DNA of 58,296 nt from Alphaproteobacteria bacterium (GTDB lineage: Bacteria; Pseudomonadota; Alphaproteobacteria; Rs-D84): the NCBI GenBank assembly GCA_017513285.1, contig JAFXGD010000046.1:1-58296 (forward strand). Reading direction: 5' to 3'. Each line of letters opens with the position of its first letter. Within the stretch, counting starts at the first letter, position 1. Below the pieces are notes generated by a model, which saw only the letters and a program-made list of their open reading frames with translations, ran no database searches and had not been told where the DNA came from. This document shows, in pieces, positions 8,317 to 32,216 of this stretch. Both the position numbers and the translations under genes were made by a program.

Positions 8317-8520
8317 ATGCCAAAATTAAAAACGAAGTCGTACTTGAAAAAGCGTGCGTCTATGACTGCGACCGGTAAAATCCGTGTTGCCCGCAACTCT
8401 CATAAAAAATTGTTGCGTAAAAAATCCGCCCGTGCAAACAAAGCGGGTGCAAAACCACAATATTTGAATGAGAATATGGTTGGACAGGCTAAGATTCTGG
8501 CCCCATATGGTTTGAAATAA
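8317..8520 (+). CDS. rpmI: 50S ribosomal protein L35
   Basis: 67-aa basic ORF starting MPKLKTKS..KKR, followed by rplT. Confidence 0.9.
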   Translation: MPKLKTKSYLKKRASMTATGKIRVARNSHKKLLRKKSARANKAGAKPQYLNENMVGQAKILAPYGLK

Positions 8521-8539: not shown

Positions 8540-8908
8540 ATGGCAAGAGTAAAACGCGGAACAACCGTAAAACAAAAACATAATAAAATTTTGGCGCGTG
8601 CCAAAGGTTATTTGGGCCGTCATCATTCCACATATCGTGCCGCCCGTGAAAAAACAGAAAAAGCGGGTCAGTATGCATATCGTGATCGTCGTGTTAAAAA
8701 ACGCGAATTTCGTGGATTGTGGATTGTTCGTATCAATGCCGCAGTGCGTGCAAATGGTATGACTTACAGCCAATTTATGAATGGTTTAAAGAAAGCAGGC
8801 GTTGCATTGGACCGTAAAGTCTTGGCCGAAATGGCGTATGCAGGCGATGCAAACTTCACCAAATTGGTTGACACTGCAAAACGATTTATTGGCACCGATG
8901 TAAAATAA
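8540..8908 (+). CDS. rplT: 50S ribosomal protein L20
   Basis: 122-aa ORF starting MARVKRG...KKHNKIL..AKGY.G. Confidence 0.95.
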
Positions 8909-8994
8909 TACCTTGTCGGTGGGTATATCTTTTGTAATAATCAAGGCCGTCATATGACGGCCTTTGTCACAGAAATGAATTCAGGATTTAAGTT

Positions 8995-9948
8995 ATGCAG
9001 GAACAAATTAAAAATATAAACACACTGGAAGAATTACAGGCGTTGTACACTGCGACGTTTGGTAAAAACGGGACTATGACCGCACGGTTAAAAGAAATGA
9101 AGAATTTGGATAACGATGCCCGTGCGGCGTTAAATCTGGAAAATCAGGCGCTGCGTGAATTGTTCAAGGTGCGCCAGACAGAAATTGAAAACGCTGTATT
9201 GATGGCTGGGTTACAGAAACAAAAACTGGATGTATCGTTAAATCCGTTGCCGGAAAATCGTGGCACATTGCATCCTTTGACACAAAGTTTCAAAGAAGTT
9301 GTAAATATTTTTGAATCTTTGGGTTATACATATATGACGGGTCCAGAAATAGAAGATGATTGGCATAATTTTACCGCATTAAATACGCCATTACATCACC
9401 CTGCCCGTGATATGCAGGATACTTTCTTTTTAACAAACGGCAATGTAATGCGTACACAAACGTCTGCGGTACAAATTCGTGCGATGGAAAAAAATGGTGT
9501 ACCGATTAAAATGTTTACTGTTGGTCAATGTTATCGCAAAGAATTAGATGCAACACATTCTGCAATGTTTGGTCAAATAGAAGGTTTGTATATTGATACA
9601 ATTGAAAAAGGTGTAAATTTGTCTGATATGTTGGCAACAATGCGAACATTTGCATCTAAATATTTTGAAAAGGATGACCTGGAACTAAGAATTCGTCCAT
9701 CGTACTTTCCATTTACGGACCCATCAATTGAAATAGATATGAAATTTGGTGACAAATGGATGGAATTATTGTGCGGTGGTATGGTTCATCCAAATGTATT
9801 AAAAAATTGTAATATTAATCCAGATAAATATCAGGGTTTTGCATTTGGATTTGGTTGGGCACGTCTGGTAATGATTAAATATGGTTTGAACGATATACGT
9901 GCGTTTACAGATTCTGATGTACGTTGGTTGAAAAACAGTGGTTTTTAA
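8995..9948 (+). CDS. pheS: Phenylalanine--tRNA ligase alpha subunit
   Basis: 317-aa ORF with class II aaRS core motifs (HPARDMQDTFF, FRPSYFPFTDPS, GFAFGFGWARL). Confidence 0.95.
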   Translation: MQEQIKNINTLEELQALYTATFGKNGTMTARLKEMKNLDNDARAALNLENQALRELFKVRQTEIENAVLMAGLQKQKLDVSLNPLPENRGTLHPLTQSFKEVVNIFESLGYTYMTGPEIEDDWHNFTALNTPLHHPARDMQDTFFLTNGNVMRTQTSAVQIRAMEKNGVPIKMFTVGQCYRKELDATHSAMFGQIEGLYIDTIEKGVNLSDMLATMRTFASKYFEKDDLELRIRPSYFPFTDPSIEIDMKFGDKWMELLCGGMVHPNVLKNCNINPDKYQGFAFGFGWARLVMIKYGLNDIRAFTDSDVRWLKNSGF

Positions 9949-24222: not shown

Positions 24223-24315
24223 CATTGAAACCCGTTGAAACCAGATTAAAGATTAATTGTGCATTCGCATATTATTCCCAGATTTTGATTATGTTATTTA
24301 CCATCTTGGCAAATA

Positions 24316-24335
24316 ATGGTGGGTGGTATTGGACT
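24316..24335. repeat. att repeat (distal copy of the tRNA-Val 3' end)
   Basis: ATGGTGGGTGGTATTGGACT, identical to 32139-32158, followed by a degenerate T-arm-like sequence. Confidence 0.9.
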
Positions 24336-24495
24336 TTCTCCACGACCTAAAAAGTCCCAGGAATCTCCCACTTTTTTCATTTTTCCAGTACCTTTTTTCG
24401 TGGTTCCGGTACCAACGACAGCCACTCAGTGTTTTCGTAGGCAAAGTATATATTGAAAAATGGCGAATGTCAATAGAATGCCCTAAATTTTGTTC

Positions 24496-24568
24496 TAGTA
24501 AGTACTTTTTTAGTACATACTGAACCTTAGTATGTACTGATGATAGTAAGTACTTTTTAGTAAATACT
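24496..24568. repeat. Direct and inverted repeat cluster near the island end
   Basis: TAGTAAGTACTTTTT(T)AGTA(C/A)ATACT occurs twice (24496-24521, 24544-24568). Also a perfect 10-bp hairpin AGTACATACT/AGTATGTACT (24512-24538). Confidence 0.8.
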
Positions 24569-24693
24569 TCCAAATTTGCGCGCTTTATACAAGGTGGTTG
24601 ATTACGATCGGGGGCTTTTTACTTGGTTATTCCCCGCGATATATTTCCGAAGATTTTTTATAGTTCTAATCATCTGTATACGGTAGAAAAGTA

Positions 24694-24999
24694 ATGAATT
24701 TGACAGAACTAACAGTAAAAAAACTAGATCGCGACAAAGATATATTGGTTGGTACGTTTAGTTTGTGTTTTGAGAAAATGCTGCATGTTGACGGCTTTAG
24801 GGTATATTACACTTCTGCACCGCGGCATCAGTATTCAGTGTCTTTTCCGTCTAATTTTACAGTAGATAGCCCAAAAGTAAGAAAGCAAATCGTAAGTAAC
24901 ATCCTAAGACAAGTAGATCAAGAAATCGCGCGCCAAGAGATCAAACAGTACGAATTGAATGATAGTAAAATCATAACAACGCAAGAAAATAAAAAATAA
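24694..24999 (+). CDS. SpoVG-like small nucleic-acid-binding protein (tentative)
   Basis: 101-aa ORF. MNLTELTVKKLDRDKDILVGTFSLCFEKMLHVDGFRVY...SVSFPS parallels SpoVG MEVTDVRLRRV...AIASITLD..FVVHDIRVI...FVAMPS. Recognised by eye from memory. Confidence 0.4.
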   Translation: MNLTELTVKKLDRDKDILVGTFSLCFEKMLHVDGFRVYYTSAPRHQYSVSFPSNFTVDSPKVRKQIVSNILRQVDQEIARQEIKQYELNDSKIITTQENKK

Positions 25000-25031
25000 C
25001 AGTTCTATTATTTGAAAAGATAAAGAATCAG

Positions 25032-25143
25032 ACATTAGTGAAAGACAAATAGACTGATTTTTTACCTGGATACATTCACAAGATTTGCATAGAGTTTCAC
25101 TAATGTAACCCCACCAAGTTTTTGTGAATGGCTTGATGGGGTT
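25032..25143. other. Interlocking inverted repeats in an ORF-free region (candidate origin or structured RNA)
   Basis: 12-nt perfect IR 25032-25043/25095-25106; 9-nt IR 25073-25081/25122-25130; 12-nt IR with 1 mismatch 25107-25118/25132-25143. Confidence 0.6.
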
Positions 25144-25507
25144 TCTTCGTAGTCCGTAAAATCCCCCAAGCTACTATTTTTTGAACAATCCTGAACCATA
25201 GAGCCACGTTTGCTTAGCCGGCTTTTATATCGCATCGTGTCTCTGTAATTTACTCAGACAAAACTATGGGGTAAAAACGATGTAGACACAATAATTTTTC
25301 TATCTTATTGCCACCAAGCTTATAAAGGGATCCACCGCGGCAAAAGATATACAAACACTGATTAGCTGGCACTCTATAAGGGAATCATTGCGGCTCGGAA
25401 TCAGTAGAAATCTAAGAAAAATAGCATACAATTTCCACGTTGATGCAAGTTCTTTTTTTATTTTATTTCCCCCTAAAGTATAACACATAAAGCATAAGGA
25501 CTAAATA

Positions 25508-26116
25508 ATGACAGAAGAAGAATTACAAAGACAACTAGAATCTATACAACAAACTATATACAATAAAATTCCGCACGATACATCCACCTATTTTATAACT
25601 ATCACTTTACCTTATGAGTTCAAGACGTATGATATTGGTTGCTTCGCGGATAGAATGAAATATCTCTTGTCTAAATTTATAAAACACCTATTGAATTGTA
25701 AAAGACTGTGGATAGATAGTGTATATGATTTTGATGCCTTCTTTGAAAATGTAGACCAAACTGAACCATGGCATCTACACTTACTTGGAACATTTATAGA
25801 TCAAACAACGGGCGCGCAATTACCAAAAAACCTTATAGAAGAAACGATGCAAAAGGCTAGTTACAGATTCAAACAACATTACGGACTAGACAGAGAAATA
25901 AACTATAAAATAAAGCTTGTTCCTTACTCTGATATTCAAACTGTTATAGGCTACTGCACAAAAGAATTGATCCAAGGTAATGTGTTGTGTTCTGATCGTA
26001 TTTATTGCCCCAAGACCTTATTCAACCCCTTACCAAAACAACCAACTAAAAAGAAAAACCTAACCAAAACCCAAAGGAAAATTCGCAAGATAAAAAAACT
26101 GTGTGGGCTTAGCTAA
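25508..26116 (+). CDS. HUH-endonuclease Rep-like protein
   Basis: 202-aa ORF with an AAGGA SD. Motif I FITITL (aa 29-34), motif II HLHLL (aa 89-93), motif III YCTKE (aa 149-153), and a Lys-rich tail. Confidence 0.5.
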   Translation: MTEEELQRQLESIQQTIYNKIPHDTSTYFITITLPYEFKTYDIGCFADRMKYLLSKFIKHLLNCKRLWIDSVYDFDAFFENVDQTEPWHLHLLGTFIDQTTGAQLPKNLIEETMQKASYRFKQHYGLDREINYKIKLVPYSDIQTVIGYCTKELIQGNVLCSDRIYCPKTLFNPLPKQPTKKKNLTKTQRKIRKIKKLCGLS

Positions 26117-26166
26117 TATCCCGCGGTCAACTCCCATAAATATCAGCTAAGACACACAAACAACAA

Positions 26167-26352
26167 CTATAAATACCGCCTAATACCATCCGCTGTAAAA
26201 AGAATTGTCTCATAGCTATTACCGCGGACTATAACATCTCCCCCTTGGTAATAGGCTGTTTTTGCATTTTTGACTGTATAGAGATAATTTCCAGACAGAC
26301 TACGAATTATCACATCTTTGCCTACCCACTCAAAACCAACACCTATACTCAT
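26167..26352 (-). CDS. Hypothetical 61-aa protein
   Basis: Its start overlaps the stop of the upstream serine recombinase gene (ATGA). Beta-rich; no family recognised. Confidence 0.4.
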   Translation of the reverse strand: MSIGVGFEWVGKDVIIRSLSGNYLYTVKNAKTAYYQGGDVIVRGNSYETILFTADGIRRYL

Positions 26353-26921
26353 TTTTTATCCTTTTCTGGTTTTTTCATATAGTTATAAACGGAAGCTCTA
26401 CAAAGTCCAAATTTTTCAGCAACTTCTGTTATATGCATTTTCTTTTTGCGAACCAACTCTTTCAATTCTGTTATATCATCATCATCCAACTTATTTTTTC
26501 CACCTTTGAATTTTCCGCGGGCTTTGGCTATTGCGATTCCTTCTGCTTGGCGATTTTTTATCAATGCTCTCTCAAATTCCGCGATACTACCCAAAATTTG
26601 TAACATCAACGTACTCATTGCATTATCTTTCCCTGGTTCAAATCGCAAATTTTCTTTCACAAACACCACTGAACAATCTTTATCTGTGATTTCTTTTACC
26701 AATGACTGCAAATCAAACAAGTTTCTAGCCAATCTGTCTAAACTGTGGCATGTGATTTCATCTCCTGGTCTCAAATTACCCAACATAGCTACCAATTCAG
26801 GACGTTCTCTATCCTTACCGCTACATTTGTCAGTATACACGCGGTCAAAGCCTTTTTCGTCCAAAGTTTGCCTGTCGGTGTTTTGGTAAACTGACGACAC
26901 GCGGCAATATAAGAATTTCAT
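26349..26921 (-). CDS. Small serine recombinase (resolvase/invertase family)
   Basis: 190-aa ORF with a catalytic N-terminus (YCRVSSVYQNTDRQ), LDRLARN, AEFER and a C-terminal HTH. Confidence 0.85.
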   Translation of the reverse strand: MKFLYCRVSSVYQNTDRQTLDEKGFDRVYTDKCSGKDRERPELVAMLGNLRPGDEITCHSLDRLARNLFDLQSLVKEITDKDCSVVFVKENLRFEPGKDNAMSTLMLQILGSIAEFERALIKNRQAEGIAIAKARGKFKGGKNKLDDDDITELKELVRKKKMHITEVAEKFGLCRASVYNYMKKPEKDKK

Positions 26922-30311: not shown

Positions 30312-32006
30312 CTAATCAATGTTGATGTGTGGTTTGTATTTTCCGCGCTTAGTGCTGATCTTTTCTGGATTGATATAAAGATCTGGGATTATTTTTTTCC
30401 AATAATCAAGATGTAAAATTTCTTCTGGATACTCAATTCTATCAACAGCTTCTTTGATTTCTTCTGTAGAGTATTTTAGATAGTTTTTTTGCCGTATAGT
30501 GCTTCCTTCCCAACCAATAATGTCATCAACAATGGAATCGTCAATCTTTAGTCTTTTTGTGTGTTTGCTTATTGTGTCGCGGAAAGAATGAAAAGAGTAT
30601 TTATTACCATCACGTGATACGATTCCTAACTCATTCTGTATAAAGCGTTCCCATGGTGCCATAAATTTTTTAGCAGGATCGCCCTTTGAACTAGCTGCGC
30701 GGTCAAATATAAAATCTGTCTCTTGCGCACCCATTTTTTTCTGTCGTGCCTTTATCATATCTAAAAAACCAAAATCTAATAATTGTTTTGCAATAGCTAA
30801 TTTTCGTTCACTAGCTTTATTTTTTCTGTTTTTCTTGGTATGGTTTTTACGGAACCAAATACAATGAACACCATCTTTTTCAATAAAATCTCCGAACTGC
30901 AAAGTGACAGCTAAATTTGTTCTTGAACCAGAAAACAATGCAACCAAACATGCTAAAAATTCATCAGGATGTGTTTTGAAGAAATCATATTTTGGGTCAA
31001 AAATTTTTGCTAATTGTTCTTCGGTAAACGTGCCAAACTCTTCTTTTTCGCCCGCTGGTGTTTCTGGTAACCTTTCTGTGTAATAAAGTAATTTTTCCCC
31101 TTTGTAAAATTCTGGTTCTTTCTTATGAGCCTGCTTTATAACCTTACGCAATACGTCCATTGTTTTGTTTTTAGAATCATTGTTTAGATTGGTTCTGCTA
31201 GTTAGCGCTTCAACTATTTTCTTTATCACGTTTTCATTGTTCAATTTAGAATAATCATCGTCCAGAGATAGATTTACCGGTTTCAATAATGTTGCTAATA
31301 TCCGCGGGAATCTCTCTTTGATTGTATCACTATTACGTTTCAGAGATTCTGTTAGAATTTCTCTTATGGTATTTTGGGGCATTTGCATGCTTGGATATTG
31401 TGGCATGTATTGTTTGTTGATTGCGGGCATTACCGGTATCATAGTTTGTGTGCCGTATACCATTTGTTCCCAAGACGTGTATTGTGGTGTAAATAATTGT
31501 TGATGTTGCTTGAATTGATACTGTATCGCTGGGTTGGTCTTTGCGCGAATAAAATGGATCAATATGTGAAGCTTGTTGCGTTCTAATTCTGCAGCCATGC
31601 CCGCGGAACATCTTTCTGTCAATGTAGCGCTGTTTCCAGTTTTGCTTAGTCTTAGTATTTCTTCACATTTGAAATATTTATCAATAGCTTGAGTGTCCGA
31701 TAAATTTTTATATTCGTTTTCTATAATGCGCGCTCGTTCTTCATCGGTTTGTGCAATTTGATTTAGATATTGATCAATAGTTACTGGTTTAGTGGTATCC
31801 AGTTCCACATTATTTATTATTTGCATAGAAAGCTCCTTTTTCACTAATGCGAGCCTTTGGATAGCCAAATTTAGATCGCTTGTTCCTAGGCTCTTTTTTA
31901 TAGAACTGAACTTTCCATCACTTTTTTTGAAAGAAATGCGAAAATAATAAATTTTTTTTCGTAAAACTAAGTTCTTTATATATACATGTCTCACTTTTGG
32001 TACCAC
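30312..32006 (-). CDS. Tyrosine recombinase / integrase (unusually long)
   Basis: 564 aa with a GTG start. Has an N-terminal arm-binding-like segment (YYFRISFKK..GK..SIKKSLGTSD). C-terminal catalytic residues are SGSRTNL (R), HSFRDT (HxxR) and GWEGST...NYLKY (W...Y). Confidence 0.85.
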   Translation of the reverse strand: MVPKVRHVYIKNLVLRKKIYYFRISFKKSDGKFSSIKKSLGTSDLNLAIQRLALVKKELSMQIINNVELDTTKPVTIDQYLNQIAQTDEERARIIENEYKNLSDTQAIDKYFKCEEILRLSKTGNSATLTERCSAGMAAELERNKLHILIHFIRAKTNPAIQYQFKQHQQLFTPQYTSWEQMVYGTQTMIPVMPAINKQYMPQYPSMQMPQNTIREILTESLKRNSDTIKERFPRILATLLKPVNLSLDDDYSKLNNENVIKKIVEALTSRTNLNNDSKNKTMDVLRKVIKQAHKKEPEFYKGEKLLYYTERLPETPAGEKEEFGTFTEEQLAKIFDPKYDFFKTHPDEFLACLVALFSGSRTNLAVTLQFGDFIEKDGVHCIWFRKNHTKKNRKNKASERKLAIAKQLLDFGFLDMIKARQKKMGAQETDFIFDRAASSKGDPAKKFMAPWERFIQNELGIVSRDGNKYSFHSFRDTISKHTKRLKIDDSIVDDIIGWEGSTIRQKNYLKYSTEEIKEAVDRIEYPEEILHLDYWKKIIPDLYINPEKISTKRGKYKPHINID

Positions 32007-32138: not shown

Positions 32139-32158
32139 ATGGTGGGTGGTATTGGACT
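32139..32158. repeat. att repeat (within the tRNA-Val 3' end)
   Basis: Identical to 24316-24335. Confidence 0.9.
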
Positions 32159-32216
32159 CGAACCAACGACCTTTACGATGTCAACGTAACGCTCTAACCA
32201 ACTGAGCTAACCACCC
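32140..32216 (-). tRNA. tRNA-Val (GAC)
   Basis: Reverse complement GGGTGGTTAGCTCAGTTGGTTAGAGC-G-TTACG-TTGACAT-CGTAA-AGGTC-GTTGGTTCGAGTCCAAT-ACCACCC-ACCA. Confidence 0.92.

Follow-up and report, generated by a model that had tools for sequence, protein, structure and literature searches.

What is the function of a densely self-complementary region of 0.5 kb that has no credible open reading frame (ORF) and lies directly upstream of the gene for a small protein resembling replication initiators (Rep), inside a chromosomal island? This question is raised by contig JAFXGD010000046.1 of an Alphaproteobacteria bacterium (GCA_017513285.1; hereafter, the window designates the whole stretch of 58,296 nt that was analysed), in which positions 25508–26116 of the + strand code for a protein of 202 residues, ORF202, and positions 25000–25507 contain a set of interlocking inverted repeats. 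A first-pass annotation had read the two as a Rep with either its origin or a structured RNA. Here, we identify ORF202, on the basis of its sequence and predicted structure, as a Rep-class, single-Tyr HUH endonuclease, and we conclude that the region upstream is most likely a folded element of the + strand that acts as RNA. The reading that we favour, on balance, is that a HUH nickase and an integrase form the core of the island, and that a transcription attenuator in the upstream leader RNA controls ORF202.

The three Rep motifs reported in the first-pass annotation are found exactly where it placed them in the 202-residue frame, with FITITL (motif I) at residues 29–34, HLHLL at residues 89–93 and YCTKE at residues 149–153; the C-terminal tail of the protein is basic. 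In an alignment with 38 relatives (18–52% identical), five columns do not vary, namely those of E80, H89, H91, Y149 and K152, among which are the His and Tyr residues of the motifs; the column of F75 is nearly invariant. The five correspond to the HUH motif, to a YxxK motif and to a third acidic residue located on the strand next to that of the HUH motif. E80, H89 and H91 are the likely metal ligands, and Y149 the likely nucleophile, with K152 as its conserved partner. In the AlphaFold2 (AF2) model of ORF202 (pLDDT 80), strands and helices follow each other as beta-alpha-beta-beta-alpha-beta-alpha; the HUH motif is on strand 88–95, E80 on the strand beside it, and Y149 and K152 on the helix formed by residues 140–154. 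In a Foldseek search of the Protein Data Bank (PDB), the model matches the nuclease domains of adeno-associated virus (AAV) Rep proteins, RAYT, the TnpA proteins of IS608 and ISDra2, and the Rep protein of porcine circovirus; in BFVD it matches replication proteins of microviruses and parvoviruses, with 28 matches at E ≤ 1e-3. Nearly all of the top matches in both collections are HUH nucleases. The best PDB fold matches, 5byg and 4zq9, are the origin-binding/nuclease domain of AAV Rep, with which ORF202 shares the beta-alpha topology and a nearly equal order and spacing of catalytic residues (E82/H89/H91/Y153 in AAV5 Rep, as compared to E80/H89/H91/Y149), but the TM score is about 0.4 and the identity 13%, and the AAV domain belongs to a eukaryotic virus and is fused to a superfamily 3 (SF3) helicase.

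The profile searches divide between ORF202 and its relatives: scanned singly, 22 of the 38 relatives match the Pfam family PF23343 (REP_ORF2-G2P) at E ≤ 0.1, the best of them at 1.7e-7, whereas ORF202 itself gives nothing at E ≤ 1 against this family. The same genome (G000) also codes for a distant HUH paralogue (contig C68:12218–12601, locus L013, in a 292-aa frame), which scores 27.3 bits against PF23343, for a cut-off of 27.8; in a profile alignment, its FEH..WHVHL and YMVKE segments line up with FEN..WHLHL and YCTKE in ORF202. Thus, the invariant residues, the AF2 fold, the Foldseek matches, and the PF23343 matches of the relatives and of the paralogue all argue for a HUH enzyme. By the same comparisons ORF202 appears to stand on a branch of the G2P/ORF2 initiators that is restricted to its lineage and has diverged very far, its membership of the family being transitive only.

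The 508 bp upstream of the gene hold no + strand ORF of at least 40 aa. Three ORFs of 40–62 aa are present on the − strand, and indels among the aligned relatives speak against their being coding, in line with the earlier view of this region. Blocks within it reach 95% identity over 79 nt, for a pair of HUH proteins that are 52% identical, and the proteins from these loci are in general about 40–55% identical; the element is locally better conserved than the protein. A metagenome pattern scan, together with BLAST searches in the order to which the host belongs, gave 18 distinct copies of the element, in about eight lineages and 50–64% identical overall. In Rfam 15, only tRNAs match in the window; the element reaches no gathering score and, apart from rli38, its best sub-threshold match (25 bits for a cut-off of 49; E 0.62), gives nothing at E ≤ 5.

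The three complementarities of the first-pass annotation, all on the + strand, are H1 (25032–25043 with 25095–25106; 12 nt, perfect), H2 (25073–25081 with 25122–25130; 9 nt, perfect) and H3 (25107–25118 with 25132–25143; 12 nt with one mismatch, and GC-rich), and they stand far above chance by both shuffling and covariation. Two more helices were found: H0 (25018–25031 with 25054–25067), the loop of which contains the 5′ arm of H1, and H3′ (25131–25141 with 25163–25171), which uses the same G-rich strand as H3 and is followed by a run of six T residues (25177–25182). All five are kept in all of the approximately eight lineages, often with a wholly different sequence; the 5′ arm of H2, for instance, reads CAUUCACAAG, AAUUCGCA, GGUGGCUCAUAA, GGUCUGU or GUUCAUGA, depending on the lineage. 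The inverted repeats are thus present in homologous islands, with compensatory changes. In eight lineages, each helix beats shuffled partners by 7–10 kcal/mol, and no more than 18 of 1600 shuffles are as stable as the real helix. For a formal covariation test, the sequences were aligned with MAFFT alone, without regard to any structure. Standard pairs fill 86.5% of the cells, as compared to 73.5 ± 1.3% for shuffles and 33–45% when the partners are slid along the sequence. Changes on both sides are seen for 27 of the 47 pairs (shuffles, 17.8 ± 2.1, with none of 500 as high; slid partners, at most eight), and the covariation score is 0.46 (shuffles, 0.22; slid partners, 0.05–0.14). Both sides have changed in 13 of the 14 pairs of H0, and in seven of the nine pairs of H2. 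A column-based covariation scan over a 600-nt MAFFT alignment had failed, because indels shift the helices, and was replaced by duplex searches anchored on the window, with shuffles; RNAalifold, on the full alignment, gave a poor and partly spurious consensus.

Four interlocked helices recur, with other sequences, in a distant subfamily (L022, L026, L027, L031 and L021) whose HUH proteins are about 22–28% identical to ORF202, and a covariance model built from H0 and H2 recovers the copies of this subfamily and two further lineages. Used with strict filters, this model (R1) finds the element in only five of 151 sampled genomes, and the element as modelled is therefore narrow in distribution, or fast-evolving. 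Folding of positions 25020–25160 of the window gives z scores of −1.9 for the + strand as RNA, −3.0 for the − strand as RNA and −2.6 for the + strand as single-stranded (ss) DNA; a single sequence is not enough to choose between them. When the helices are taken one by one, the + strand, which is the sense strand of ORF202, is more stable than the − strand for four of the five, and 54 of the 489 pairs (11%) are of the G-U type.

The helices compete with each other. H0 crosses H1, with zero nt between their 5′ arms, H1 crosses H2, and the 3′ arm of H2 is the 13-nt loop of H3; the pairings, which the first-pass annotation had called mutually exclusive or pseudoknot-like, therefore fall into two nested, mutually exclusive folds, X (H0 and H2, to which H3′ may be added) and Y (H1 and H3). 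Since segments that each have two conserved partners are the signature of an attenuator, we read the 5′ 150 nt as a transcription switch. When the best terminator-like hairpin was sought in 15 lineages, it was H3 in ten and H3′ in five, the window included, with 5–8 U residues in the next 10 nt in each case. In the window, the H3 hairpin and its U-rich tail (TTTCTTC) span 25107–25148; in the distant subfamily, H3 is followed by UUUUAUGUUUUUUU or CUUUUUUAUGUUUUUU, and the U-tract is clear in L022, L026, L027, L031, L021 and also in L008. A hairpin with a U-tract functions as an intrinsic terminator in RNA and has no such function in ssDNA, which argues for the RNA. Of the two possibilities left by the first-pass annotation, an origin or a structured RNA, the latter is thus favoured by the G-U pairs of the + strand, the mutually exclusive helices and the hairpin followed by a U-tract, and the origin reading is probably wrong in detail.

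In the attenuator that we propose, fold Y would present a GC-rich hairpin and a U-tract to the transcribing polymerase, H3 being the putative intrinsic terminator, and transcription would stop. In fold X, H2, the putative antiterminator, would sequester the loop of H3 and allow read-through towards ORF202. The element would in this way set the amount of the HUH protein, in the manner of the leader attenuators of pT181 and pIP501, and the signal that flips the switch could be an antisense RNA, the SpoVG-like product of ORF101 (see below) or the HUH protein itself.

Several observations weigh against such an attenuator. A scan of 24300–26400 for consensus sequences finds no clear promoter and no terminator, and there is no convincing − strand (antisense) promoter in 25000–25200; both results are based on a consensus from which the promoters of the host may differ. 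The U-tract that follows H3 in the window itself is weak (UUUCUUC), and lineages of the W type have the second hairpin, H3′, and then a T-run, which makes a simple on/off logic less straightforward. The switch is separated from the gene by about 300 nt of additional conserved sequence, which the attenuator leaves unexplained. A −10-like box (conserved TATAAC/GATAAT) is found after the last hairpin of the region, so that ORF202 may have a promoter of its own, in which case the element would be a separate RNA and not a leader. As for the protein, ORF202 has no significant match in direct searches of Pfam, PHROGs, NCBIfam and the PDB sequences, and its Foldseek scores are modest (best E 4e-3 in the PDB and 9e-5 in BFVD; TM 0.4–0.5). 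Lastly, the strand-specific folding would also be compatible with an origin in + strand ssDNA.

An ssDNA origin is the alternative to which the last point leads: the region would be a rolling-circle origin, combining a minus-strand (single-strand) origin with a nick site, and the hairpins would form in the + strand once it is displaced, attracting the host RNA polymerase or the Rep, much as in the 508-nt intergenic region ahead of gene II in the Ff phages or in the single-strand and double-strand origins found upstream of rep in rolling-circle plasmids. The neighbouring gene is of the gene II protein/ORF2 Rep lineage, the layout is that of Ff, in which the Rep gene immediately follows a structured intergenic region on its own strand, and the folding is both covarying and specific to the + strand; a conservation above that of the Rep is also, from general knowledge of rolling-circle plasmids, typical of single-strand origin cassettes recognised by the host. 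Moreover, an invariant GTTCTAT upstream of the HUH gene resembles the gene II nick region of Ff, GTTCTTT/AATAGTGG, in which the position of the nick is established (PMC11765958). However, the U/T-tracts that come right after the GC-rich H3 in all lineages have no role in ssDNA, two complete and exclusive sets of helices are conserved, which a static ssDNA origin does not require, 11% of the pairs are of the G-U type, and the compared islands carry no structural or assembly genes of ssDNA phages. The CTTGAT hexamer in the 3′ arm of H3 (25132–25137), in which the first-pass annotation saw a likeness to the CTTGATA nick core of pC194/phiX174-type origins, is indeed present; it is not conserved, and reads CTTGTT, CTTGCC, CTTGGT or GTTGGT in other lineages. 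Because it changes together with its pairing partners, we reject it as a nick core. We regard an ssDNA origin as unlikely, while giving it serious weight.

The invariant motif mentioned above, AGTTCTAT (25001–25008, + strand), lies at the 5′ edge of the element, just before H0, and is on the present alignment a better candidate for a DNA site than CTTGAT. It is unchanged in eight aligned sequences, from three W-type lineages and from the distant subfamily with its very divergent HUH proteins, and of 28 distinct loci, 21 have its GTTCTA core ahead of the HUH gene, that of the C68 paralogue included. It may be a nick or binding site for the HUH protein, or part of a promoter, since it overlaps a TATTAT/TCTAAT box located 4–9 nt before H0 (TATTAT at 25006–25011). 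A second copy of the GTTCTA motif, AGTTCTAA (24662–24669, + strand), is found about 25 nt before the start of ORF101; more generally, a second copy lies about 340 nt upstream of the first, just before the ORF101-like gene, wherever such a gene is present, and in L046, L051, L064, L065, L067 and L070 the two copies, 333–347 nt apart, flank that gene.

Three other occurrences of the motif were recorded. In the lineage of L010, GTTCTA is present only as its reverse complement, TAGAAC (at about 9470–9480), some 30 nt before H0, which would be at odds with a simple promoter. Two CAGTTCTATT sites are found 649 and 280 nt upstream of the start of the C68 paralogue. In the window, a second exact copy of AGTTCTAT is found in inverted orientation at 31900–31907 (− strand), inside the integrase gene, towards its 5′ end and close to the opposite end of the island; its presence is compatible with chance (11 of 100 shuffles gave at least two matches), and the other islands have no consistent pattern.

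Downstream of the switch, three further parts of the element can be told apart on the + strand. The middle domain (25190–25258) is closed by a CTGA/TCAG helix (25191–25194 with 25254–25257), inside which the hairpin AGAGCC/GGCTTT (25200–25205 with 25220–25225) has a conserved loop and is followed by TTTAT; this sequence block is kept in all lineages, and its covariation was assessed by eye only, so that the support for it is weaker. The 3′ domain (25301–25405) consists of the hairpin C1 (25301–25312 with 25339–25349) and of a three-tiered hairpin, C2–C4 (25357–25363 with 25399–25405; 25364–25371 with 25389–25395; 25372–25375 with 25379–25382). Its topology is predicted in five of the eight lineages, with some compensatory changes and weak energy z-scores (−0.7 to −2.1), and it is missing or different in the distant subfamily. 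The last hairpin, C5 (25424–25431 with 25440–25446), is terminator-like, being followed by TTCTTTTTTT (25450–25459) about 50 nt before the start codon; a hairpin at this position, of differing sequence, is found in seven of the eight lineages, with an A-tract and a U-tract on its flanks. The start of the switch (25015–25038) and that of the three-tiered hairpin (25342–25365) share a 24-nt direct repeat, 75% identical; the element may have grown by internal duplication.

These parts bear on another possibility, in which a non-coding RNA of about 450 nt stands on its own, beginning near 25018 and ending with the hairpin and U-run at 25424–25459. Instead of being a leader in cis for ORF202, it would act in trans or serve the HUH protein as, for example, a guide, primer or scaffold. 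Such an RNA would account for the terminator-like hairpin and its seven U residues some 50 nt before the start codon, with the conserved TATAAC/GATAAT box behind them, and for the many strongly conserved single-stranded blocks (GGGGTTTCTTC, AATTTAATCAG, CAATGTA, CATTGCGGCT and CAGAAATC); its length and complexity exceed those of known rep leaders, and the basic C-terminal tail of the HUH protein is conserved. On the other hand, alternative helices that end in a terminator are typical of attenuators working in cis, the 3′ domain is lacking or different in the distant subfamily, and we know of no precedent for a HUH enzyme with an RNA partner. We consider a stand-alone RNA distinctly improbable. 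In a bolder form of the same idea, the 450-nt element would represent a new class of large structured RNAs and, beyond any control of transcription, would cooperate physically with the HUH enzyme; it could guide or prime both nicking and replication once the island is excised, and the SpoVG-like protein could be a further partner. This is in our estimate a long shot.

Having named the leader attenuator as the preferred reading of the element, we turn to the island that carries it. In the window, the island is 7.8 kb long and is bounded by a 20-nt direct repeat of the 3′ end of tRNA-Val, at 24316–24335 (the attL core; left boundary of the island) and at 32139–32158 (the attR core), the latter within the tRNA-Val(GAC) gene at 32139–32216 (− strand). 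A tyrosine integrase of 564 aa is encoded at 30312–32006 (− strand). Homologous contigs share two end genes, for the ORF202 homologue and for a tyrosine integrase of about 560 aa, and differ in their cargo, which in the window comprises resolvases, a GmrSD/HNH nuclease and an EcoRI-like methylase, and in other islands a Type ISP restriction enzyme or a Slam/surface-lipoprotein pair. For the loci with enough flanking sequence, an integrase homologue was found 2.5–8 kb from the HUH gene in 19 of 27, and in 16 of those 19 the integrase homologue adjoins a tRNA gene (Val, Pro, Gly, Thr, Leu, Ser, Lys or Tyr). This association, and the conservation of the two end genes around different cargo, lead us to place the HUH gene, from its genomic context, in the core of an island family that inserts at the 3′ ends of tRNA genes and is specific to a lineage of gut Alphaproteobacteria whose genomes measure about 1 Mb.

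Globally, the ORF202 family is rare, with 38 clusters at 50% identity among 1.84 billion representatives and eight close relatives of ORF202 in large protein collections. Within the order of the host, that of the Candidatus Enterousia relatives, a member is found in 104 of 328 genomes (of about 1 Mb each), with up to four per genome; the only named carriers are metagenome-assembled genomes of Candidatus Enterousia, and no relatives were found in a scan of viral contigs. The genome of the window has one copy of the ORF202 gene and the one distant paralogue. This distribution bears on whether ORF202 could be a Y1 transposase of the IS200/IS605 or RAYT kind, with the hairpins as the ends of its DNA. 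The small size and the single Tyr are compatible with such an enzyme, and RAYT and the TnpA proteins of IS608 and ISDra2 are among the fold matches. The gene, however, is single-copy apart from the distant paralogue and always lies within integrase-bounded islands with tRNA att repeats, the hairpins are on one side only, and the Pfam searches gave no match to Y1_Tnp; we have rejected a transposase, which is hardly credible on these grounds.

What the core genes may do can be pictured as follows. The integrase would excise the island as a circle, and the HUH protein would nick one strand of this circle, Y149 forming a covalent 5′-phospho-tyrosine link, so that rolling-circle replication or transfer could begin. 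If transfer is meant, ORF202 would be a relaxase with an origin of transfer (oriT) upstream, and the island an integrative mobilisable element (IME) exploiting a resident type IV secretion system (T4SS), an arrangement that is compatible with an RNA leader. Of the 328 genomes in the order, 297 have a VirB4-type gene in single copy (216 of the 224 of high quality), the genome of the window also codes for a coupling protein, and the compared islands carry no transfer genes of their own; Rep-like HUH or Rep_trans proteins are reported to act as relaxases in IMEs and integrative conjugative elements (PMC6499999, PMC5090054). Being near-universal and single-copy, the VirB4-type gene suggests, from the genome sequences, a core T4SS of the order, which is uninformative about the 32% of genomes that have a HUH gene, and we discarded the presence of a T4SS as a discriminator. 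Furthermore, the closest sequence family of ORF202 is that of ssDNA phage and plasmid initiators and not of MOB relaxases. Mobilisation of the relaxase type by the HUH protein is without specific support, and we assign to it a low, if appreciable, probability.

Two smaller genes accompany the HUH gene in more than one island. ORF101 (24694–24999, + strand) is possibly a divergent SpoVG-like nucleic-acid-binding protein, and its counterparts are kept upstream of the structured element in several subfamilies. ORF101 itself has no match to the SpoVG family (Pfam PF04026), but four of its relatives match below the cut-off, at 7.1e-5 to 0.08, the best being the homologue P0050 (7.1e-5, over 80 of the 82 profile positions), and one source labels an ORF101 homologue SpoVG. 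The AF2 model of ORF101 is of low confidence (pLDDT 61) and gave no meaningful fold match, and a profile search found no match among the PDB sequences. Since SpoVG proteins bind RNA and DNA (PMC4959528, PMC11086051), ORF101 could, speculatively, be the effector of the switch. The second gene, convergent with that of ORF202, is a 61-aa ORF (26167–26352, − strand) that is kept beside the HUH gene in another island, L005, with different cargo; its counterpart there (8823–9014) is 63% identical, more than the HUH proteins are, and from this conservation it looks like another member of the module. In both islands the next gene is that of a recombinase, a serine resolvase in the window and a small tyrosine recombinase in L005.

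Some further features of the islands were noted. A near-consensus promoter, TTGACA-17-TATACT (11 of 12 positions), is found at 24445–24473 (− strand), in the repeat-dense arm of the island, and faces outward, to attL and metG. The contig of L001 (Logan contig SRR21150980_31665, 7873 bp) runs from 12 nt left of attL to about 18 nt right of attR, the right end being extrapolated, and so covers just the island; in the sample from which it comes the assembly graph apparently branches at both att sites, suggesting that occupied forms coexist with empty or excised ones. In L064 (G059:C12), a complete tRNA-Val is found at 8368–8444, at the HUH-side end of the island, whose integrase end is cut off by the contig boundary; the insertion may be in tandem or have a different arrangement.

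How does the locus compare with known systems? As do the gene II/ORF2 initiators (PF23343) with the Ff intergenic region, it probably combines HUH and Tyr chemistry, 22 of 38 relatives and the paralogue being tied to the family, with an ORF-free, structured stretch of about 0.5 kb directly upstream and on the same strand, and a GTTCT-containing motif like that of the nick region. In contrast to Ff, ORF202 has no PF23343 score and half the size of gpII, there are no phage genes, the setting is an integrase-borne tRNA island, and what lies upstream resembles an RNA switch with U-tracts more than it does the hairpins of an ssDNA origin. RepB of plasmid pMV158 has about 200 aa, no helicase domain, a HUH motif and a single Tyr, and is controlled by CopG and by a short antisense RNA that acts on translation. 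Size, the absence of a helicase domain, the HUH motif with one Tyr and, on the reading proposed here, the part of a regulatory RNA in the control of rep are common to both systems, but there is no detectable sequence relationship, and RepB is borne by a plasmid and ORF202 by an island.

The leader itself is closest to those of Gram-positive plasmids. Novick, in 1989, is reported to have described attenuation of the rep leader of pT181 under the control of a countertranscript. Leader attenuation controlled by countertranscripts is established for the rep genes of pT181, pIP501 and pAMbeta1 (PMC2879508). In these plasmids, as here, a rep leader has mutually exclusive pairings, one of which is a terminator hairpin, here a putative one, followed by a U-tract. 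The element differs in having four or five helices instead of two or three, and a leader of about 450 nt with extra domains; the search for an antisense promoter was negative, and the element is integrative, resides in a Gram-negative alphaproteobacterium and goes with an unrelated Rep family.

A Rep this small on a tRNA island was thought unusual in the first-pass annotation, a view that we do not share: the arrangement is common in this order, and the pSAM2-type integrative and conjugative elements of actinomycetes (AICEs) are tRNA-integrated elements with rolling-circle rep genes (PMC2440964). pSAM2 resembles the present islands in being a small element of tRNA genes with a tyrosine integrase and a rolling-circle Rep (RepSA), but it belongs to another phylum and its Rep to another family. 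AICEs also carry Xis, Tra (FtsK-like), Kor and Pra, whereas the islands described here have defence or surface-protein cargo and no transfer gene, and a structured leader comparable to ours has not been described for AICEs.

The element therefore joins known kinds, a HUH Rep, a tRNA island and a rep-leader attenuator, in a new form. The work defines an unnamed branch of HUH initiators that escapes direct searches of Pfam, PHROGs and NCBIfam, and a family of tRNA-targeting islands which, in an uncultured, genome-reduced lineage of the gut, ferry genes for defence (restriction-modification, Type ISP) and for the export of surface lipoproteins. It adds an RNA-like element that is absent from Rfam, with an unusually clear covariation for two exclusive folds, and it corrects the natural assumption that inverted repeats beside a Rep gene are a DNA origin. 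Should an RNA indeed assist the HUH enzyme, the system would be specific to the integrative islands of gut Alphaproteobacteria with reduced genomes. If the element is the switch that we propose, it would be a compact one, of four helices, and the attenuation of rep leaders, mainly known from Gram-positive plasmids, would extend to the integrative elements of Alphaproteobacteria.

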